The notes beneath the pieces are model-generated. The model saw only the letters and a list, made by a program, of their open reading frames with translations, was not told where the DNA came from and made no database searches. The position numbers and the translations under genes are program-made. Shown here one piece after another: positions 3,806-56,370 of a stretch of 64,000 nt of DNA. Every line of letters starts with the position of its first letter. Position 1 is the first letter of the stretch. Source of the DNA: an uncultured Candidatus Saccharibacteria bacterium. Its GTDB lineage: Bacteria; Patescibacteriota; Minisyncoccia; Phycocordibacterales; UBA9973. Location: assembly GCA_964591445.1 (NCBI GenBank), contig CAZQAW010000002.1, positions 67,394-131,393 on the forward strand, given 5' to 3'.

Positions 3806-3845
3806 TCAAAAAATCCTGAAACTCAAGTGAGTTTCAGGATTTTTA
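3806..3845. terminator. bidirectional rho-independent terminator
   Basis: A-run, perfect 13-bp stem ATCCTGAAACTCA/TGAGTTTCAGGAT, T-run; sits between convergent genes. Confidence 0.65.
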
Positions 3846-5556: not shown

Positions 5557-6642
5557 TTACTTAAGAATTTTTAGCAAAGGATCAAACCGGAAAAGTTTAT
5601 TTCGACTTCGCTGTCCAACTTCAGAAATGTAGTTTTTTTCCTGTAAATTCTTTATGAGACTTGTTGCGGTAAGGTAGCTTGAACATTTTGTTGAATCCTG
5701 AACCATTTTAATAGTGAAAATCGGAGATTCGAAGAGCATATCAATAAATGGAATTATATATGGAGATTTATTAGTACTGTATTCTTTTCTCACCTTGTCA
5801 TATAAGGAATATATTTCTTCTATGATTTTTTGTGTTTCGTTGAGTTGTTCAGAAACAGAACGAAGGAAAAATTTTAACCACTCCTCGATATCATTACCCT
5901 CATCCACTGCATGCAATTTATCGATGTATTCATCTTTGTGGTCTTCAAAATAACCACTCAAATAGAGAATCGGGGCAGAAAGTCGTTGGTGTTTATGTAA
6001 GACTAATGGAATAAGTAGTCTACCAATACGCCCGTTTCCGTCATCAAAAGGGTGGATTGCTTCAAATTGATAATGCATCACGCCAGCTTTTATAAGTGCA
6101 TTTTCTTTGCCATTATTTATATAGTCAAACAGATTATCGACACCGCTTCTTACGTGTATTGGTTCTGGTGGAACATAAATTGCTTTCTCGATTGGATCTC
6201 CTGCACGTTCTGCAATCCATACTTGGCCTTCACGAAATTTCCCTAGTAAACCTTTATGGCGAACATCTTTCAATAGTATCCCGTGTAAGCTCTCAATGAG
6301 ATGACTACTTACACCTCTGCCTTTCTGAATTTCTTTTACTGCAAGCCCCATTGCTGTTCGGTAGTTTATGACTTCCTGAATGTCTGCGTGTTTAGTTTTT
6401 TCACCAGCATCAAATAGGAAAACATCCGCGACATCGCTTTGTGTTCCTTCGATCTTAGAACTCATAACGGCTTCTTTCGCTGTAAGAGGTGAAATAAGAA
6501 GTGAAGAGTTTTGTAATTTTTTTTGAGAACCTTCAAGTAAGCCAAGGGCGTACTCGGCGGTTGATAGTTCTTCTGCAAATTTGTTATAGTCTAACTTCAG
6601 CCCTTTAGGGTCCAAGTTTTTTACGATTGCTGGTTTTTTCAT
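5557..6642 (-). CDS. Fic/DOC family protein (AMPylator-type) with N-terminal inhibitory motif
   Basis: Canonical Fic motif HPFDDGNGRIGRLL; upstream SKIEGT matches the (S/T)xxxE(G/N) auto-inhibitory helix of class II Fic proteins. Confidence 0.85.
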   Translation of the reverse strand: MKKPAIVKNLDPKGLKLDYNKFAEELSTAEYALGLLEGSQKKLQNSSLLISPLTAKEAVMSSKIEGTQSDVADVFLFDAGEKTKHADIQEVINYRTAMGLAVKEIQKGRGVSSHLIESLHGILLKDVRHKGLLGKFREGQVWIAERAGDPIEKAIYVPPEPIHVRSGVDNLFDYINNGKENALIKAGVMHYQFEAIHPFDDGNGRIGRLLIPLVLHKHQRLSAPILYLSGYFEDHKDEYIDKLHAVDEGNDIEEWLKFFLRSVSEQLNETQKIIEEIYSLYDKVRKEYSTNKSPYIIPFIDMLFESPIFTIKMVQDSTKCSSYLTATSLIKNLQEKNYISEVGQRSRNKLFRFDPLLKILK

Positions 6643-17844: not shown

Positions 17845-17883
17845 GCAGCAAAAAATCCTTATTTTATAAGGATTTTTTGCTGC
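17845..17883. other. perfect 17-bp stem / 5-nt loop hairpin (GCAGCAAAAAATCCTTA-TTTTA-TAAGGATTTTTTGCTGC)
   Basis: Exact inverted repeat in the 350-bp non-coding region between tRNA-Gly and yraN; the T-runs lie inside the stem, so it is not a classical intrinsic terminator. Confidence 0.6.
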
Positions 17884-17927: not shown

Positions 17928-18016
17928 TGTTTCACGTGAAACAGTTTCATATGAAACACCACATAAAATCTCGATTTTTGGCATCTTTAGAAAAAATTCA
18001 TGTTTCATATGAAACA
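17928..18016. promoter_or_regulatory. three palindromic operator-like sites TGTTTCAYRTGAAACA upstream of yraN
   Basis: 17928..17943 TGTTTCACGTGAAACA (perfect 16-bp palindrome), 17944..17957 GTTTCATATGAAAC (abutting), 18001..18016 TGTTTCATATGAAACA (perfect; 9 bp before the ATG at 18025). Confidence 0.55.
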
Positions 18017-18024
18017 ATAGCCTT

Positions 18025-18480
18025 ATGCCAAAGGTTTTTACTTCAAAAAGCCAAAAAATAGGGGAGTTGGGTGAAGAAATTGCCTGTAAATATCTTATTT
18101 CTAAAGGATTTAGAGTTTTGGAACGCAATTATACAAAGAAGTGGGGAGAAATAGACATAATTGCAGAACGTGATAGGAAAATCTACTTTATAGAGGTAAA
18201 AGCGGTTTCATGTGTAACATTGCCGGAGGTTTCTCAGTCAGACAATACCTCACCCCGGGCCTCTGGCCGACACTCTCCTACCTTAGGAGAGGGAAGAAGC
18301 CTTTTCCGTCCAGAAGAAAACATGCATCCAATGAAAGTCCGCAAGTTCTTAAGGACAATTCAAACGTACTTGATCCAAAGGAAAATAGAAGGGGAGTGGC
18401 AAGCAGATCTGTATTGCGTGTATATCCAGCTTGAAAGCCGCAAGGCAAGGGTGACGAAAATAGAAAACATTATTGGTTGA
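18025..18480 (+). CDS. yraN: YraN/UPF0102 family endonuclease-like protein carrying an in-frame repeat-derived insertion
   Basis: KYLISKGFRVLERNYTKKWGEIDIIAERDRKIYFIEVKA ... DLYCVYIQL matches the YraN core; about 30 extra residues (SQSDNTSPRASGRHSPTLGEGRSLF) are encoded by a family-A repeat fragment. Confidence 0.7.
   Translation: MPKVFTSKSQKIGELGEEIACKYLISKGFRVLERNYTKKWGEIDIIAERDRKIYFIEVKAVSCVTLPEVSQSDNTSPRASGRHSPTLGEGRSLFRPEENMHPMKVRKFLRTIQTYLIQRKIEGEWQADLYCVYIQLESRKARVTKIENIIG
18224..18302. repeat. family-A palindromic element, partial copy inside the yraN reading frame
   Basis: CAATACCTCACCCCG...CCGACACTCTCCTACCTTAGGAGAGGGAAG shares the ACCTCACCCCG and CTCTCCTACnTTAGGAGAGGG blocks with 11207..11318. 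Confidence 0.6.
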
Positions 18481-19403: not shown

Positions 19404-19415
19404 ACAGACAAACAA

Positions 19416-19445
19416 AAATCCCTCAGCCTAGGCTGAGGGATTTTT
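19416..19445. terminator. bidirectional terminator (tRNA cluster / hup)
   Basis: AAATCCCTCAGCCTAGGCTGAGGGATTT flanked by A/T runs. Confidence 0.6.
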
Positions 19446-19458
19446 GTAAGTGGTGATG

Positions 19459-33032: not shown

Positions 33033-33052
33033 TACTAAAAAATATACAGCAC

Positions 33053-33080
33053 AAAAAATCAGCCTTCGGGCTGATTTTTT
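33053..33080 (+). terminator. rho-independent terminator
   Basis: AAAATCAGCCTTCGGGCTGATTTTTT. Confidence 0.65.
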
Positions 33081-33114
33081 GTGCTTGGTCTTTCTGCCGT
33101 GCTACAATGCTCGT

Positions 33115-33868: not shown

Positions 33869-34996
33869 ATGAACTACCCAACTCTCAAAGAACTCAAAAA
33901 CTTGAAAGGTACACGCGTCATTGTCCGAGTAGATTTCAATGTTCCGCTTGATGCAAAAGGAAAAATCGAAGACACGTTTCGGATCGATTCTGCGCTTCCG
34001 ACTTTGGAATACTTGCGAAATAAAGGCGCGCGGATTATTCTTGTTTCACATATCGGCAAAGATGGCGCGACCAGTTTGAAAGTTGTGCACGCATATTTGA
34101 ATAAGAAATTCCCGCTCGCATTCTCAAAAGATGTGGTTGGCTCTGAAGTAGAAAAGCAAGTCTACGCAATGAAAGCTGGCGATGCGATTTTGCTTGAAAA
34201 TGTTCGTAAAGAAGTTGGAGAAATGGGAAATTCAAAAATCTTTGCGCTTGAACTTGCAAAGCTTGGCGAAGCATACGTGAACGAAGCTTTTTCTGTTTCT
34301 CATCGTGCACATGCGAGCTTGGTGCTTGTGCCAAAACTTGTGCCCTCATATATTGGTTTGCAGTGTGAAAAAGAAGTCAAAGAACTTTCTAAAGTGCACG
34401 ACAATGTAAAACACCCTTTTCTTTTTATCTTGGGTGGTGCAAAGTTTGAAACGAAAATGCCGCTTATCAAAACGTTTTTGAAAACTGCCGACACGGTGTT
34501 CGTGGGCGGTGCGCTTGCAAACAACTTTTTGAAACTCGAAGGCTACAATGTCGGTAAAAGTTTGATCGATGAAGACGTGAAAGGCTTAGAAAAAATTGCC
34601 AAGAACAAAAAGCTTCTGCTTCCGGTAGATTTGATAGTTGAAAATGGAAAGACGAAAAAAGAAATCGGTCTTGATGAAGTAAAACATGGCGACATGATAG
34701 TCGATATGGGCAAAGCAAGCGTTGCGCTTTTGGAAACATATATCAAAAAAGCAAAAATGATTGTCTGGAACGGCCCGCTTGGCAAAGGCTCAAACACAAA
34801 AGCAACTTCCGCAATTTTACATTTACTTGCACAAAATAAAGCAACGAGAATTATTGGTGGGGGAGATACGGCAGAGATTATTGATGAACTGAAACTCAAA
34901 GACAAAGTTGGATTTGTTTCAACCGGCGGCGGAGCAGCGATAGATTTCTTGATAGACGAAAAACTTCCTGCGCTTCAAGCCCTCAAAACTAAATAA
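33869..34996 (+). CDS. pgk: phosphoglycerate kinase
   Basis: RVDFNVPLD...ILVSHIGKDG...FILGGAKFETK...GGGDTAEII. Confidence 0.9.
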   Translation: MNYPTLKELKNLKGTRVIVRVDFNVPLDAKGKIEDTFRIDSALPTLEYLRNKGARIILVSHIGKDGATSLKVVHAYLNKKFPLAFSKDVVGSEVEKQVYAMKAGDAILLENVRKEVGEMGNSKIFALELAKLGEAYVNEAFSVSHRAHASLVLVPKLVPSYIGLQCEKEVKELSKVHDNVKHPFLFILGGAKFETKMPLIKTFLKTADTVFVGGALANNFLKLEGYNVGKSLIDEDVKGLEKIAKNKKLLLPVDLIVENGKTKKEIGLDEVKHGDMIVDMGKASVALLETYIKKAKMIVWNGPLGKGSNTKATSAILHLLAQNKATRIIGGGDTAEIIDELKLKDKVGFVSTGGGAAIDFLIDEKLPALQALKTK

Positions 34997-35300
34997 GTGT
35001 TCGCGGGATCAAATGAATATGAAAGTGTGGGACATCTTTGCCTATTACTTTGAGTTCAACGTATTCGCAACCAAGGCGTGATTTCATTTCGAGCATCATG
35101 TGTTTTGCTTGCACAAATATTTTTGCAATGATTTCATCCGGAGCATCTTGCATCCACACGTAAGGATGTTTTGAAATAAGCAGTGTGTGGCCTGGTGCGG
35201 CGGGATGAATATCTAAAAATGCGATCATTTCGTCGTTTTCAAATACGATGTCTGCTGGAATTTCTCTGTCTATAATCTTTTGAAATATTGTTTTCTCCAT
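34989..35300 (-). CDS. HIT family (histidine triad) hydrolase
   Basis: FQKIIDREIPADIVFENDEMIAFLDIHPAAPGHTLLISK...VPHFHIHLIP (HxHxHxx). Confidence 0.8.
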   Translation of the reverse strand: MEKTIFQKIIDREIPADIVFENDEMIAFLDIHPAAPGHTLLISKHPYVWMQDAPDEIIAKIFVQAKHMMLEMKSRLGCEYVELKVIGKDVPHFHIHLIPRTLI

Positions 35301-35322
35301 ATGGGTTCATTATATGGTAAAA

Positions 35323-35471
35323 TAGAAAAAGTGGAAAATATGATTTGAAATGCCTTGCGCAAGGTCGTCTACAGATGTCTGTCTTACCCGACAGACCCGT
35401 CGGGCCGAGCAGAGCAAAAATTCAGCAGAATTTTATGTCGTGCATTTCAAATCATATTTTCCACTTTTTCT
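35323..35471. repeat. 30-bp perfect inverted repeat flanking an 89-nt structured core in the HIT/recJ divergent intergenic region
   Basis: AGAAAAAGTGGAAAATATGATTTGAAATGC (35323..35352) and its exact reverse complement (35442..35471). The core contains the palindrome CCTTGCGCAAGG and the stem GTCTGTC-TTACCC-GACAGAC; the right arm ends 4 nt before the recJ ATG. Confidence 0.65.
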
Positions 35472-35474
35472 TAT

Positions 35475-37151
35475 ATGAAACCTATCCCAGACGAACTATC
35501 TACATATACGCCGCTACTCGGCCGACTGCTTACAAACCGCGACATTGTCACTTTCAAAGACGCAGAACATTTTTTGAATCCTTCTTTTACGCGCGACTTG
35601 GCAGACCCGTTCGGTATTCACGATATGGAAAAGGCGACGGTGCGGATTTACGAAGCAATGGAAGCGAAAGAAAAAATTGTGGTTTTTGCGGATTATGATT
35701 GCGACGGCATTCCAGGTGCGGTGATTATGCATGACTTTTTTACAAAGCTTGGTTATGAGAACTTTGAAATATACATTCCCGACAGACATCACGAAGGATA
35801 TGGCTTGAGTATTCCCGCGATAGAAAAGTTTCGTGACAACGAAGTAAAATTAATTATTACCATCGATCTTGGAACTTCAAACGTCGAAGAAATCGCGCAA
35901 GCGGAAGCGTTTGGAATTGATGTTATAGTCACTGATCACCATTTACCGAAAACAGATGTGCCGCATGCGTACGCAATTGTGAATCCAAAACTAAGTCCTG
36001 ATTATAACGATATCATGCTCTGCGGTTCCGGAGTTGTATTTCGTCTTGTGCAAGCATTCCTTACAAAGTATCGTGAATACTACAAAGTCCAAGACGGATG
36101 GGAAAAATGGTTGCTCGACATGGCCGGCCTCGCAACGCTTTCAGACATGGTGCCGCTGGTCAAAGAAAACCGCGTGCTCGCATACTACGGCATGATGGTG
36201 TTGAAAAAAAGTCCACGACCTGGTTTGCTTCGCTTGCTTTATAAAATGAAAGTCGATCCGCGTACAATGACCGAAGACGATATTGCCTTTATGCTCACTC
36301 CGCGCATCAATGCTGCTTCGCGCATGGACAATCCGCTTCGCGCTTTCGAACTTCTTTCTACTCGCGATAGTGTGAAAGCGGGTGCACTTGCTGACCATTT
36401 GACAAACATAAATGACGAACGAAAAACACTGGTTGCAACGATCATGAAAGAAGCGCATCACACTTTGCGCGAGAGAGAAGAGAAGCATGTGATCGTCATT
36501 GGCAACCCAAAATGGCGCGTTGGTGTGCTTGGGCTTGTCGCTTCGAAGATTATGGAAGAATATAAAAAGCCGACATTTGTGTGGGGGCTTGAAGGTGCGA
36601 GCGTGATCAAAGGTTCGTGTCGAAGCGACGGCAGTGTGAACTTGGTGTCGCTTATGGCGCACATTCCAAAAGATTCACTTCTCGAATTCGGCGGGCATGA
36701 ACTTGCCGGAGGATTTTCTGTGAGTCACGAAAGCGTGCATTTTCTCGAAGAGCATCTTAGTGCAAGTTACACCGAAATAAAAAAAGAAGGAGCGATTGTT
36801 TCTGCAAATCCTATCGACATGCATTTGACGCTCGACGATGTGACGATGAAGAATTACAAAGACATTGCAAAGCTCGCACCGTTTGGTGTTGGGAATCCGA
36901 AGCCGACATTTCTGTTTGAAAATGTGATGATCCAAAACGTCAAAGAATTTGGGAAAGAGCAAAACCACCTTGAACTGTGTTTTGAAAATTCAAACAGCAG
37001 GCCGATCAAAGCGATAGCATTCTTTAAAACGCGCGCGTCCTACGGCCGCGCGCTTCAAAAAGGCGTTGCCATAAATCTTGTAGCAACCTTTGAACTTTCC
37101 AACTTTGCCGGCAGGGAAGAGCTGCGGCTACGCATAGTTGATATTTTATAA
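35475..37151 (+). CDS. recJ: single-stranded-DNA-specific exonuclease RecJ
   Basis: DHH motifs (DYDCDGIPGAVIMHDF; VTDHH) and DHHA1 domain (GGHELAGGFSV). Start at ATG 35475. Confidence 0.85.
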   Translation: MKPIPDELSTYTPLLGRLLTNRDIVTFKDAEHFLNPSFTRDLADPFGIHDMEKATVRIYEAMEAKEKIVVFADYDCDGIPGAVIMHDFFTKLGYENFEIYIPDRHHEGYGLSIPAIEKFRDNEVKLIITIDLGTSNVEEIAQAEAFGIDVIVTDHHLPKTDVPHAYAIVNPKLSPDYNDIMLCGSGVVFRLVQAFLTKYREYYKVQDGWEKWLLDMAGLATLSDMVPLVKENRVLAYYGMMVLKKSPRPGLLRLLYKMKVDPRTMTEDDIAFMLTPRINAASRMDNPLRAFELLSTRDSVKAGALADHLTNINDERKTLVATIMKEAHHTLREREEKHVIVIGNPKWRVGVLGLVASKIMEEYKKPTFVWGLEGASVIKGSCRSDGSVNLVSLMAHIPKDSLLEFGGHELAGGFSVSHESVHFLEEHLSASYTEIKKEGAIVSANPIDMHLTLDDVTMKNYKDIAKLAPFGVGNPKPTFLFENVMIQNVKEFGKEQNHLELCFENSNSRPIKAIAFFKTRASYGRALQKGVAINLVATFELSNFAGREELRLRIVDIL

Positions 37152-37200
37152 CCCCACCCCTCCGTCTCGGAATACCGAGCCACCTCCCCTTTAAAAGGGG
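37143..37200. repeat. family-B palindromic element copy downstream of recJ
   Basis: ACCCCACCCCTCCGTCTCGGAATACCGAGCCACCTCCCCTTTAAAAGGGGAGGAAAACACG; related to 12037..12110; hairpins CTCGG/CCGAG and CCTCCCC/GGGGAGG. Confidence 0.5.
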
Positions 37201-37300
37201 AGGAAAACACGAGTTCTTGACTTTTTATACAATATGGTGTAAAGTGTGGTCAAACGAATTTTAAAATAACAAATAATTAAACTAAAACAAATTTACAACA

Positions 37301-38230
37301 ATGAAAAGACTCATTATTCTCTTGGCGGTTATAGCGTCTACGCTTCCGTCTACGTCCAATGCTCAGTGTACTGGACTTGGTTTTACTGCTGGTGCTTCAC
37401 CGACTATCCCTTCTTGTATGCGTACAGGGGATACTACTAGTGTTTGGTTGTCCTGGTGTTCTGATGCTGGATATACTTATGACATTGTAAAGCCGGATGG
37501 AAGTTCAGAGGTTACTCAGTTACAGACAGGATTTTACACTTTGGGCTCGATTGGTGCCCAAACAGCCACGAAGTACAATGGTAACTGGAAAGTTAAAAAA
37601 TACTTCAACGGTAATCCTTTGCCTGTAGATAGTGGTGTGTGTACAATTGCTTACGCTGCACCTGCGGTATATGTTACACCTATGCCAAGCACACCAACGC
37701 CCGAAATCTATATTTGGCAATGCGCAACCATTACTGTTTCCCCTCAGTCACCCTGTTATACTTATCAGTGGCACAAGAAACAATCAAACGGAAGCTGGGC
37801 TATGATTTCTGGAGCAACAGGTCTAACTTATAAGACAAAACTCTTGGAATTAGGCACATTTGCTTGCGAAATTATCGATCAAACAGGCGGGCACAGCGTT
37901 TTTACTACCTACACGGTAACAATCAAACGCAAAAAACTGTTTTCTTGGTTCAGACAATCTGATCAAACACAAGACGATGTACCGATGTTTGAAGAAAAAC
38001 AGATAGCGGAACCGGAAATTGCTAAAATTCCATACTCACCTCGTGTGTATGACAAAGTCATTATTTATGATATAACTGGCAAAGAAATAGTACATTTTAC
38101 GAATATTTCATCAGATGTGAAAAATCATGAAATAATACAGAAATTGTCAGCCCGTCCAGGAATTTACTTTATATGCAAAATAAGCAACAATCAGGTTTTT
38201 GCAAAAGATAAAGTTATTAAGCAGCAATAA
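37301..38230 (+). CDS. secreted protein with T9SS-type C-terminal sorting-like domain
   Basis: Signal peptide MKRLIILLAVIASTLPSTSNA; C-terminus ...VYDKVIIYDITGKEIVHFTNIS...GIYFICKI matches Por-secretion C-terminal-domain consensus. Confidence 0.55.
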   Translation: MKRLIILLAVIASTLPSTSNAQCTGLGFTAGASPTIPSCMRTGDTTSVWLSWCSDAGYTYDIVKPDGSSEVTQLQTGFYTLGSIGAQTATKYNGNWKVKKYFNGNPLPVDSGVCTIAYAAPAVYVTPMPSTPTPEIYIWQCATITVSPQSPCYTYQWHKKQSNGSWAMISGATGLTYKTKLLELGTFACEIIDQTGGHSVFTTYTVTIKRKKLFSWFRQSDQTQDDVPMFEEKQIAEPEIAKIPYSPRVYDKVIIYDITGKEIVHFTNISSDVKNHEIIQKLSARPGIYFICKISNNQVFAKDKVIKQQ

Positions 38231-46482: not shown

Positions 46483-47367
46483 ATGATCCTGTTTTGGTAT
46501 ACTTGCTGTATGCAATTCTTGAAACGGAACCGCTGGCTTATACTTTTGTGTCTTGTTTTGCTGTGTATTTTTGTCTGGTGGAAATTGTGGTCTGCCAATA
46601 CCGGCAAGTTGCAAGTTTCTTTTCTGGATATTGGACAAGGGGACAGTATTTTTATCCAAGCGCCCAACGGCCGGCAAGTTTTGATAGACGGCGGCAGAGA
46701 CCAGACTGTTTTGAAACGCCTCGGCGAAGTGATGCCGTATGGCGACCGCTCGATAGACGTGATGATTGCGACGCATCCGGACGCTGACCACATTGGCGGG
46801 CTGCCTTTTGTGCTTGCACACTACAATGTTGCGATGGTAATGGAGCCTGGCGTGGGCTCGGATTCTGACGTGTATCAAACTTTTGAAGAAAAAATAGGGG
46901 AAGAGAAAGCGGCGCGCGAGTACGCGCGCCGCGGCATGACCCTCGTTCTCGACCAAGAAAAAAACATCCACCTCGATATTTTATTCCCAGACCAAGACGT
47001 TTCAACGTGGGAAACGAACGAAGCCTCCATCGTTGCCAAGCTTGTCTATGGACACACTTCTTTTTTGTTGACCGGCGACGCGCCACGACAAACCGAACTT
47101 TATTTGGACAAACTCAACAAGAAAGAACTCGACGTCGACGTGCTCAAGCTCGGCCACCACGGTTCGCACACGTCTACTTCGCCGACATTTATCCAAGACA
47201 CAACGCCCGACTACGCCATTATTTCAGCAGGCAAAAACAACAGCTACGGCCACCCGCACCCAGAAGTCTTGCAAGTGCTGGAAGCTTTCCAAGTGCCGTA
47301 TCTTGCAACGTACGAACAGGGAACTATTACATTTGTAAGTGATGGAGAAGTGCTTATTAAGAAATAG
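46483..47367 (+). CDS. stand-alone ComEC-type metallo-beta-lactamase domain protein (membrane-anchored)
   Basis: N-terminal TM; VSFLDIGQGDSIFIQ...ATHPDADHIGG...LKLGHHGSHTS motifs of the ComEC C-terminal MBL nuclease domain. Confidence 0.75.
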   Translation: MILFWYTCCMQFLKRNRWLILLCLVLLCIFVWWKLWSANTGKLQVSFLDIGQGDSIFIQAPNGRQVLIDGGRDQTVLKRLGEVMPYGDRSIDVMIATHPDADHIGGLPFVLAHYNVAMVMEPGVGSDSDVYQTFEEKIGEEKAAREYARRGMTLVLDQEKNIHLDILFPDQDVSTWETNEASIVAKLVYGHTSFLLTGDAPRQTELYLDKLNKKELDVDVLKLGHHGSHTSTSPTFIQDTTPDYAIISAGKNNSYGHPHPEVLQVLEAFQVPYLATYEQGTITFVSDGEVLIKK

Positions 47368-47475
47368 CCAGAACATACTTTTTAAAAGCACGACATAAAA
47401 TCCTGGTGGATTTTTGCTCTGCTCGGCTCGACAGCCTGCGCAAGGCTTTTCAAAAGCATGTTCTGGCTATTTCTT
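47360..47475. repeat. 24-bp inverted repeat (1 mismatch) with 68-nt spacer bridging the stops of two convergent genes
   Basis: AGAAATAGCCAGAACATACTTTTT (47360..47383) versus AAAAGCATGTTCTGGCTATTTCTT (47452..47475). Confidence 0.45.
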
Positions 47476-47478
47476 TTC

Positions 47479-49266
47479 TTATTTAAAACAATAATGCTCC
47501 CAGGTAGTAGTCGGTTTGATGGTCGGAGTTTTGTAGTCCGGCAATGTGTCTTCGCGCATGTAGATTATTTTAAAGTTGTCGAGCTTCTGCCCGTCTTCCT
47601 TGTGGCTGTTGTTCCACTGTCGGCACAAATATTGCCCGTAGTACAAACGATACTTGCTGTAATCGCTTCGCCACAAATTCATCATGTATTTTTGCCAGCG
47701 TTGGTCGAAATACGTTTTCGAAACGAGCATCGGTTTGCCATAGTTTACCGGGCCGCCGTTTTTGTAGAGGTCAACCAAAGTTCCATCGCTCAGCGTGCCG
47801 GGAATAATGTACCAGCCGTCATCTATGAGCGGGTAAGGCGCAAACATGTCGAACTTTTGGTCGAGGCGTGTGACCCAGGCAAAAGGTTTCAAACTTTCGG
47901 GAATGATTTTCTTTGCACCGCCAAGCGTGTCGACGTTCCACAAAACAATATAAATAGTCACAAGCACAAGCGCTGTACTTTTCACTGCACGCACAACATT
48001 CTTCCGTTTTTCTTTGCCCGGAGAAAATATAACTTTCTTTGGTGGCAAGCAAATGGTGAGTCGTGAGTTTGCAGTTGTGCGATACAAATATTCTCCCACA
48101 TGGTGAATACCTGGTAATTTGAATACGAATACAAGCGGCCACCAGAGCGGAGAAAAACGAAGTGTGGCGATCAAACCATCAAATCCAAAAAACTTCCTGC
48201 CTTTTTCGTCTACTACAACCCATGAATTTTCTTTGCGCATGAGAGCTTCTATTTCTGCATCATTTTGCGCAGGCAAAATAGTTGTTTTCGGAGAAAGGAA
48301 AAGCAAACGTTTCAAGTATTGTACTGTGCGAGTGCAGAATCCGCAGTCTTTATCAAAGTAAATCGTGAGCCCAGCTTTGCGAGAAAATGCGAACCATGGG
48401 AGCACTTTGTCCCAGAAGATCGAAGGCAGAAGCCCGAGTGTGATAGCAATGCTGATCGCTCCGAAAAGCCCGATCGACATGGAAAGATTGATACCGATCT
48501 GGAACATTGCGAACAAAACAACTCCGACAAGGCGTGTATATTGATTCCATAAAGGGAAAATAAAAAGAAGGGTGCCATAAATCTCAAGCCAGATAGTCGA
48601 ATATGTGAGAAACGTAAGCGCGCGCGGGAAGCCAAGCAAAAAATGCCCGAACGGAGTAGTGAGCTGGTCGATGCTCAGTGCATAATACAGTGCGGTGCCA
48701 TCTTTCCATTGCACGCCTGTTTTCAAAAGTCCGGCAAAAAGATAGAAGACGAAAATCTGCGCAATGTAGCCGACAGTTGCGGCAGAAAACACGAGCTTTT
48801 CTTCGGCCGGTTTTGTATAGTTGCGGAAATTGTCAAAGCTCCATCGTGCGCCCCACGGCAGGAACATTGCAAAAAACATCACGCATCGCAAGATGACGTC
48901 GCCGCCTTGAATAACGAGAGGATTTCTATTTTGTACAGAAATAATAAGGAACCACGAAAGTACTGTTGCTAAAGTCGTGCGGTAGCCAATGAATACTGCG
49001 ACGGCAAGCAAGCCGGTGATGATGAAAAGAATTCCTTCAAAAAAAGCCGTGCCGCTCATGTGATGCACCGAAATGAGCCAAGGATTGTTGAAAAGTTCAA
49101 GAAGATGCGCGCGCGGCAATACGCCCAGATCTGTATAATGCGCCACCAAGCTCCGCCCGCGTTCGATAGTATCAAGCACAAGTATGAGCCCGATCGAGAT
49201 ACGCATCAAAGCCAAAGATCGGTAGTCGAGAGAGAAAAGCTTCTTCAAGTATTCGGTTATTTTCAT
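47479..49266 (-). CDS. HTTM domain membrane protein fused to a DCC1-like thiol-disulfide oxidoreductase (DUF393) and a C-terminal domain of unknown function
   Basis: N-terminal polytopic region with the HTTM (vitamin-K-carboxylase-like) topology; central IYFDKDCGFCTRTVQYLK matches the DCC/DUF393 CxxC motif; roughly 200-aa C-terminal domain unassigned. Confidence 0.7.
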   Translation of the reverse strand: MKITEYLKKLFSLDYRSLALMRISIGLILVLDTIERGRSLVAHYTDLGVLPRAHLLELFNNPWLISVHHMSGTAFFEGILFIITGLLAVAVFIGYRTTLATVLSWFLIISVQNRNPLVIQGGDVILRCVMFFAMFLPWGARWSFDNFRNYTKPAEEKLVFSAATVGYIAQIFVFYLFAGLLKTGVQWKDGTALYYALSIDQLTTPFGHFLLGFPRALTFLTYSTIWLEIYGTLLFIFPLWNQYTRLVGVVLFAMFQIGINLSMSIGLFGAISIAITLGLLPSIFWDKVLPWFAFSRKAGLTIYFDKDCGFCTRTVQYLKRLLFLSPKTTILPAQNDAEIEALMRKENSWVVVDEKGRKFFGFDGLIATLRFSPLWWPLVFVFKLPGIHHVGEYLYRTTANSRLTICLPPKKVIFSPGKEKRKNVVRAVKSTALVLVTIYIVLWNVDTLGGAKKIIPESLKPFAWVTRLDQKFDMFAPYPLIDDGWYIIPGTLSDGTLVDLYKNGGPVNYGKPMLVSKTYFDQRWQKYMMNLWRSDYSKYRLYYGQYLCRQWNNSHKEDGQKLDNFKIIYMREDTLPDYKTPTIKPTTTWEHYCFK

Positions 49267-56331: not shown

Positions 56332-56370
56332 AAAAACAGCGGCGCCGGTAAACCGGCGCCGCTGTTTTGT
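56332..56370 (+). terminator. strong rho-independent terminator directly after rpsG
   Basis: ACAGCGGCGCCGGTAAACCGGCGCCGCTGT (13-bp GC-rich stem) then TTTTGTT. Confidence 0.7.

Follow-up and report, generated by a model that had tools for sequence, protein, structure and literature searches.

The 64,000-nucleotide stretch of DNA analysed here (the window) contains a HIT-family gene and a recJ gene that diverge from a short spacer filled by one long inverted repeat, and the question raised by this locus is what kind of element that repeat represents. An earlier note on the sequence proposed a MITE, a cis-regulatory RNA switch or a recombination site. The evidence assembled below indicates that the repeat, named el1, is most probably a copy of a small, non-coding, MITE-like family of mobile repeats in Paceibacteria-type CPR bacteria (probability about 0.8). 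As far as literature searches show, this sequence family is undescribed in the CPR lineage, although the kind of repeat is known. The window is assigned to a CPR bacterium because the homologues of its RecJ are named RecJ of Candidatus Paceibacterota and Nomurabacteria; an exact look-up of the RecJ sequence itself gave no record. The parts of the locus are as follows.

34989..35300, minus strand: HIT-family gene, 103 aa (Pfam PF01230, E = 1.5e-18)
35309..35314, minus strand: TATAAT -10 box from the promoter scan, 8 nt upstream of the HIT ATG (putative function)
35315..35323, plus strand: extended -10-like box TGGTAAAAT, putative recJ promoter, directly upstream of el1
35324..35353: el1 left arm (terminal inverted repeat) AGAAAAAGTGGAAAATATGATTTGAAATGC, pairing 30/30 with 35442-35471
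35337-35332, minus strand: -35-like TTTCCA matching the HIT -10 box, inside the el1 left arm
35354..35441, plus strand: el1 core, aligned with el2 and the metagenome copies
35354-35363, plus strand: core junction CTTGCGCAAG
35364-35396, plus strand: copy-specific 33-nt insertion inside hairpin P3
35397-35406, plus strand: remainder of P3, CCGTCGGGCC
35407-35416, plus strand: conserved purine linker GAGCAGAGCA
35417-35434, plus strand: hairpin P2, AAAATTC-AGCA-GAATTTT
35435-35441, plus strand: core junction ATGTCGT
35442..35471: el1 right arm (terminal inverted repeat)
35475..37151, plus strand: recJ, 558 aa (Pfam DHH, DHHA1 and RecJ_OB)

The element spans 148 bp (35324-35471) and is crossed by trivial ORFs only. 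The perfect 30-bp inverted repeat reported in the earlier note is real and its right arm was placed correctly, but the left arm had been placed one nucleotide off, and the core measures 88 nt rather than 89. The HIT ATG lies 23 nt from the left arm as described, and the recJ ATG is indeed adjacent to the right arm, at a distance of 3 nt. In 100 dinucleotide-preserving shuffles of the window, the 30-mer has no match at up to three mismatches. Predicted folding energies are -67.1 kcal/mol for the plus strand (z = -7.9 relative to shuffles) and -67.9 kcal/mol for the minus strand (z = -8.6). Two further details to which attention had been drawn, a 12-nt palindrome (CCTTGCGCAAGG at 35353-35364) and a 7-bp stem-loop (GTCTGTC at 35377-35383 pairing with GACAGAC at 35390-35396), are both present and are incidental. 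The palindrome is the family’s conserved junction motif (CTGCGCAAGG elsewhere) and is palindromic in el1 only, and the stem-loop falls within the insertion specific to el1. This insertion also has two 10-mers, CCCGACAGAC and GACAGACATC, in common with a single spot in the recJ coding sequence (35778-35790), where by a rough estimate ~0.08 such matches are expected by chance.

An inverted-repeat scan of the whole window identifies a second family member, el2, in the following setting.

46483..47367: metallo-beta-lactamase-fold (MBL) gene, with its stop codon inside the el2 left arm
47351..47358: left copy of the el2 target-site duplication, TGCTTATT, a 7/8 match to 47476-47483
47359..47475, plus strand: el2
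47476..47483: right copy of the el2 target-site duplication, TTCTTATT
47479..49266, minus strand: HTTM/DCC1 gene, with its stop codon inside the right target duplication

The el2 element has 31-nt arms, paired at 29 of 31 positions, around a canonical 55-nt core, and its plus strand corresponds to the minus strand of el1 in the alignment. Three blocks of the core are identical in the two copies (GCACGACATAAAAT, ATTTTTGCTCTGCTCGGC and TGCGCAAGGC), whereas their arms differ at ~12 positions with complementarity retained within each copy. A covariance model built from 21 copies of the family scores el1 at 67 bits (35342-35452, minus strand) and el2 at 90 bits, and these are the only significant matches in the window, which also holds no further copies of the element ends. 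A weak match at 17947-18013 (E = 0.12) probably reflects, instead, a 14-bp palindromic motif that occurs three times, at 17929-17942, 17944-17957 and 18002-18015 (GTTTCACGTGAAAC once and GTTTCATATGAAAC twice). These palindromes lie upstream of an ORF at 18025..18480 and look like operator sites for a dimeric regulator.

Beyond the window, a metagenome search with an 18-mer from the core returns 120 loci, of which ~20 are true homologues and most are chance matches in ABC-transporter genes. The covariance model finds 29 copies from 22 sources (the window and 21 metagenome contigs), so that at least 27 lie outside the window. Two or three copies occur on each of five single short contigs (L047, L065, L073, L075 and L115), compared with two in the 64-kb window; up to three are found within 3.3 kb, and the extra copies on short contigs are more diverged. 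Searches of other collections gave no true copies. The exact el1 30-mer is absent from a set of one genome per species (GTDB), in which a degenerate core pattern gives five chance matches and no true copy. A scan of viral contigs gives two chance matches only, and blastn against phage and plasmid records gives none. Searches of the window and eight other loci against Rfam, at gathering and at permissive thresholds, return only tRNAs and one spurious miRNA-stem match, in which a precursor model for a plant miRNA (29 bits, with its threshold at 211) picks up only the generic long stem. Two of the metagenome contigs end inside element copies (L133 at its end, position 5840, and L073 at its start), which suggests that the repeats break assemblies; such breakage may contribute to the absence of the family from the scan of representative genomes.

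All copies share one architecture, in which long complementary arms close a conserved centre of ~55 nt with two hairpins, P2 and P3, forming a three-way junction. The closing stem P1 is variable in sequence, often has internal loops and is formed by arms of 20 to >40 nt. The complete elements are non-coding and 117-160 bp long, within the size limit for MITEs (under ~400 bp). The family plan reads, in order:

P1, closing stem, left arm
CAC(R)CAU, junction
P2, AAAAUYC-UGCU-GRAUUUU
UGCUCUGCUC, linker
P3, GGCY-NNNN-RGCC
UG(Y)GCAAG, junction
P1, closing stem, right arm

Evidence that these hairpins are mobile comes first from their ends. Four copies on different contigs have the conserved termini CTCTGAATTACGAAA...TTTCGTAAYTCAGAG, and another subfamily group shares AAATAGCTCTTCTCGAAATGC... 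termini. Several copies are flanked, immediately outside the hairpin, by direct target duplications of 7-8 bp:

L079: TACTTAT, 7/7
L112: TAATTTT, 7/7
L115 (copy L115a): GTTATAA, 7/7
L073 (copy L073a): ATGATTTA, 8/8
L121: TACATTA / TATATTA, 6/7
el2: TGCTTATT / TTCTTATT, 7/8

By a rough estimate, chance would produce 7 matching nucleotides at a fixed offset in AT-rich DNA a few times in ten thousand. Several other copies, for example L075a and L033, show no target duplication, and neither does el1, whose flanks both contain TATATG (35311-35316 and 35472-35477) with the left occurrence 7 nt away from the arm, so that it is not a clean duplication. The idea that a short core was inserted into pre-existing hairpins was considered and rejected, since it is the entire hairpin that the duplications enclose, and since members of a subfamily have conserved ends.

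The second line of evidence is provided by empty sites. A relative whose RecJ is 75% identical (L129) is fully syntenic with the window across TIM, PGK, HIT, RecJ, a 370-aa protein and a large Ig-domain protein, and in this relative only ~40 nt separate the HIT and recJ ATGs and the spacer has no covariance-model match. The element is likewise absent upstream of recJ in a relative with 71% RecJ identity (L131); of the relatives compared, only the strain with 95% RecJ identity (L128) carries the el1 copy. The impression in the earlier note that el1 exactly fills its spacer thus arises because the element inserted into a very short divergent spacer. The 148 nt of el1 show no differences from the 95% strain, but this was discarded as a sign of purifying selection because divergence between the two is patchy and another spacer is also identical.

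At the el2 locus, the HTTM/DCC1 and MBL-fold genes converge and overlap by 16 nt in two relatives that lack the element (L135 and L136), and the sequence duplicated in the window is present there as a single copy. The el2 insertion struck the stop codon of the HTTM gene, which the target duplication preserved, and removed the last codons of the MBL-fold gene, which now stops inside the el2 arm. A 98% relative (L133) carries the el2 copy. In a 71% relative (L134), this convergent site is occupied by another member of the family, whose perfect 22-bp arms are unrelated; it represents a second insertion or, alternatively, a very old copy in which compensatory changes have preserved the pairing. 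Adjoining the family copy on that contig is an unrelated perfect 26-bp inverted repeat (L134:5795-5880, AGTCCGCAAAATACAAAAATTTCTTG / CAAGAAATTTTTGTATTTTGCGGACT) around a 33-nt G+C-rich core, possibly a member of a further family of hairpin repeats in these bacteria. The copy-free region upstream of recJ in L131 (9985-10003, gcTAAAATAGCCAGatg) has 11 nt (AAATAGCCAGA) in common with the end of el2, which could be a chance match or the relic of a solo end.

The empty sites also bear on the RNA-switch proposal of the earlier note, according to which el1 would be a dedicated cis-regulatory RNA (riboswitch, thermometer or attenuator) for recJ and/or HIT. The position of el1 in a divergent spacer beside both starts and its very stable predicted fold agree with such a role. 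The lack of the element in the syntenic L129 spacer and ahead of recJ in L131 speaks against it, as do the placement of other copies beside unrelated genes, often at their 3′ ends, the location of the HIT -10 box outside el1 and next to the ATG, and the lack of an Rfam match. As far as sequence evidence goes this explanation is already refuted, and it is retained only at a very low probability.

The MITE candidate, in contrast, is supported. The search for other copies that the earlier note recommended yields dispersed copies with target duplications for the family, the outcome that the note named as the mark of an ordinary MITE, although el1 itself has no clean duplication, and the family combines subfamily-specific inverted repeats and 7-8-bp duplications with empty sites for both el1 and el2. 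In terms of the properties by which MITEs are recognised, it agrees in size, inverted ends, copy number and insertion polymorphism, and in target duplication for several copies. The copies would have inserted among unrelated housekeeping genes with 7-8-bp duplications of AT-rich target DNA; subfamilies differ in their end sequences, with the core common to all.

The gene context of the family is consistent with this history. The 138 ORFs around the metagenome copies encode housekeeping functions (SecY, adenylate kinase, M24 peptidase/methionine aminopeptidase, Hsp70 and type IV pilins) with no enriched function, and the frequent families among them include no transposase, reverse transcriptase or integrase. 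No autonomous element or transposase with matching ends was found among these ORFs or in the window. Copies lie between tandem, convergent and divergent genes. An apparent bias in orientation relative to host genes (8 to 2 in a first tally) becomes ~7-9 to 5 with a better gene call and was rejected as no real bias.

Since copies often sit at gene ends, several of them between convergent genes (el2, L009, L075 and L084), and since T-rich runs mark the arm ends on either strand, the element might alternatively be a bidirectional terminator or insulator hairpin that the host has selected between genes. This is improbable, because el1 lies between divergent starts where there is nothing to terminate, a terminator scan reports no terminator-like site in 35000-35800, ordinary short terminators exist elsewhere in the window, and the target duplications and conserved core would be left unexplained. 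At 3809-3844, 17845-17883, 19412-19447, 33048-33085 and 56333-56368, just after genes or tRNAs, there are short hairpins with 17-18 perfectly paired bp and with A and T runs; these look like ordinary intrinsic terminators and differ from the long hairpins of the family.

Ordinary MITEs are conserved at their ends. In the present family the ends differ, and it is the core that is conserved, both between subfamilies and between contigs with G+C contents of 33-54%; the arms, P2 and P3 covary strongly. In the larger covariation alignment, which was itself fitted to the covariance model, 92.3% of cells are paired compared with 71.8% in shuffles, 15 of 18 pairs have changed on both sides, and the covariation score is 0.544 compared with 0.171 in shuffles (reached by 0 of 500) and at most 0.168 for slid partners. 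An independent MAFFT alignment gives the same trend. P2 alone occurs as AAAAUUC/GAAUUUU, AAAAUCC/GGAUUUU, AAAAUCU/AGAUUUU, AAAAUCG/CGAUUUU and AUAUUUCUU/AAGAAAUAU. Such covariation of P2 and P3 is not required by a recognition site in double-stranded DNA. Two structural candidates within the core were examined and dismissed. A CRCA/UGYG pairing of the junction strands is unsupported by covariation, as all four base combinations are seen, and a hammerhead-like CUGACGA motif lies within the covarying P3 helix, with the GAAA and stem II features missing.

The two strands of the element behave differently. In 24 of 27 copies the better fold is that of the reverse complement of the alignment strand, with summed energies of -1287 compared with -1110 kcal/mol; for el1 the favoured strand is the plus strand, which is the sense strand of recJ. 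Among transition mismatches in the arms, counted as unique events, 36 are G.U on the better-folding strand and 9 on the other, although some of these events are possibly shared by descent or located in misaligned internal loops. The single difference between el2 of the window and that of L133 is also A-U versus G.U on the better-folding strand. The mixed orientation relative to host genes makes a bias from host transcription or replication unlikely as the source. The wobble asymmetry suggests a single-stranded stage, as RNA or ssDNA, and two explanations present themselves: selection to fold as single-stranded RNA or DNA, or C-to-T damage to one strand during a single-stranded stage.

These observations are the basis for a different interpretation, in which the elements are structured RNA genes or modules whose core is a working RNA (for example for protein binding, as a processing signal or as a ribozyme); the element would be kept for this activity, and its mobility would be a secondary or an ancient property. 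The strong covariation of P1, P2 and P3, a core that is nearly invariant in contigs of 33% to 54% G+C, and the excess of wobble pairs on the strand that folds better all fit this interpretation, and the bcr1 repeat of Bacillus provides the precedent of a transcribed mobile repeat with compensatory changes (PMC3184786). It nevertheless appears unlikely, given that no consistent promoter or terminator is seen, the orientation to host genes is mixed, no known RNA family in Rfam matches, and the target duplications, conserved ends and empty sites show mobility. The asymmetry itself could stem from strand-specific C-to-T damage in an ssDNA stage.

Conservation of the folded structure rather than of the arm sequence, together with a favoured strand as in the bottom strands of attC, would also be expected of a site for site- or structure-specific recombination (integron attC-like, Xer/dif-like or the relic of a hairpin telomere). 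This third candidate of the earlier note finds no support and is highly improbable: no integrase or recombinase genes occur among the 138 neighbouring ORFs, the flanks are housekeeping genes and not cassettes, the conserved part is central instead of terminal as in attC, and direct target duplications are not made by such systems. The ends of the family also differ from integron attC sites in that they have no R′′/R′ motif (GTTRRRY), and the elements do not belong to that class. A dif/Xer-like reading of GCATAAAAT was set aside, the resemblance being only partial.

With the MITE-like family as the preferred interpretation, covariation of P2 and P3 and strand asymmetry are still unexpected for cut-and-paste transposition of DNA, which suggests a layer beyond the MITE label. 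It is hard to picture one sequence-specific transposase, because the ends differ strongly between subfamilies. The conserved core may be recognised by the mobilising machinery or by an RNA-binding factor, and the family may pass through, or be selected in, a single-stranded folded form (RNA or ssDNA). As a tentative extension, the core could be an undescribed functional nucleic-acid module of CPR bacteria, either a new small RNA device (self-processing or protein-recruiting) carried on hairpin elements or a folded single strand recognised by a new structure-dependent transposition system that makes 7-8-bp duplications; this is regarded as unlikely.

Among known repeat systems, the Correia elements of Neisseria and bcr1 of Bacillus are the nearest analogues. 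Correia elements (CREE) have a TA target duplication and a characteristic 26-bp repeat sequence, and their host is Neisseria. They are described (as CREE/NEMIS) as non-coding sequences of ~100-155 bp with inverted repeats around a conserved core and many intergenic copies; they are often co-transcribed with neighbouring genes as a long hairpin, their ends can contribute promoter elements, and RNase III can bind or cleave them (PMC2649163). The present family resembles them in its terminal inverted repeats and conserved core, and the position of el1 between a putative promoter and a start codon would be the classic CREE situation. It differs in having no detected sequence relation, in its 7-8-bp rather than TA duplications, in ends that vary by subfamily around a conserved and covarying centre, and in its Paceibacteria-like CPR host, and it is not assigned to the Correia elements.

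The bcr1 elements (group A bcr repeats of the Bacillus cereus group) are ~155 bp long, behave as mobile DNA with short direct repeats, vary in presence between strains, are transcribed, and have compensatory changes that keep a branched structure with two stem-loops (PMC3184786). Size, direct repeats (here at several copies), strain-variable presence and compensatory maintenance of a branched fold are thus common to both. The sequences are unrelated, however, and bcr1 has 5-bp direct repeats compared with 7-8 bp here and has no closing stem of 20-40 bp. ERIC/IRU and other small mobile repeats of enterobacteria, as well as REP/BIME, are intergenic imperfect palindromes with many copies that fold at the RNA level (PMC3184786, PMC2229807), and in this respect they are similar. 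REP sequences are 20-40 bp long, G+C-rich and marked by GTAG or CGTC tags (PMC3733652), whereas the arms of this family are AT-rich, 20 to >40 nt long and without a tag, and enclose a large conserved centre; the family is not a member of REP/BIME. ERIC is conserved over its whole length and not in a core with variable arms.

The consequences of the el1 insertion for its neighbours depend on where their promoters lie, and the empty site of L129 is informative in this regard. The L129 stretch cattgtatgatagaat aligns with cattatatggtaaaat in the window (35308-35323), where two -10-like boxes are placed back to back. L129 has a recJ -10-like box, TGATAGAAT, 17 nt before the recJ ATG, and TACAAT 8 nt from the HIT ATG, the same distance as in the window. 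The recJ start at 35475 is also the start called in the 95%-identical homologue. From this comparison, 35315-35323 is the putative recJ promoter, and el1 would have landed between it and the recJ start codon. A recJ transcript from this promoter would have its 5′ end in the left arm, ~7 nt beyond the -10-like box, and would carry nearly all of el1 as a leader of ~145 nt whose ~24-bp stem stops 3 nt short of the start codon. A leader of this kind would probably be open to cleavage by a double-strand RNase, or could slow initiation, as has been described for the Correia elements (PMC2649163). Alternatively, -10-like hexamers (TATGAT), which the promoter scan reports inside the el1 arms, could start transcripts that do not include the 5′ arm.

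For HIT, the -10 box 8 nt before the ATG implies a nearly leaderless mRNA without el1; the gene would keep this box and its near-leaderless start, with the -35 position now in the el1 arm. The expectation in the earlier note that transcripts of both genes would contain the hairpin is therefore reasonable for recJ and does not hold for HIT, whose -10 box is situated between el1 and the ATG. The promoter positions, and any effect of el1 on the expression of recJ or HIT, are predictions from sequence features. Downstream of recJ, a gene for a 309-aa protein (37301-38230) differs at 36% of its bases from the strain in which recJ differs by 6%, and the spacer that precedes it (37152-37300) is 100% identical to that same strain, a pattern that suggests a hypervariable surface gene or a recombination mosaic.

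The mobile DNA of CPR/Patescibacteria is poorly catalogued, and no literature report of MITE- or REP-type repeats or of structured RNA of this kind was found for these bacteria. The family described here alters gene ends, as in the MBL-fold gene that now stops inside a copy, and it would alter leaders, as in the hairpin leader predicted for recJ. It also probably breaks metagenome assemblies. The covariance model could be used to annotate the repeats, which would avoid mistaking them for riboswitches or small-RNA genes in CPR genomes. Its covarying core and strand-biased wobble make the family a test case for whether some bacterial MITEs are maintained via an RNA or ssDNA stage, and if the core does prove to be a nucleic-acid module of either kind, to describe the family as a decayed insertion sequence would fall short.
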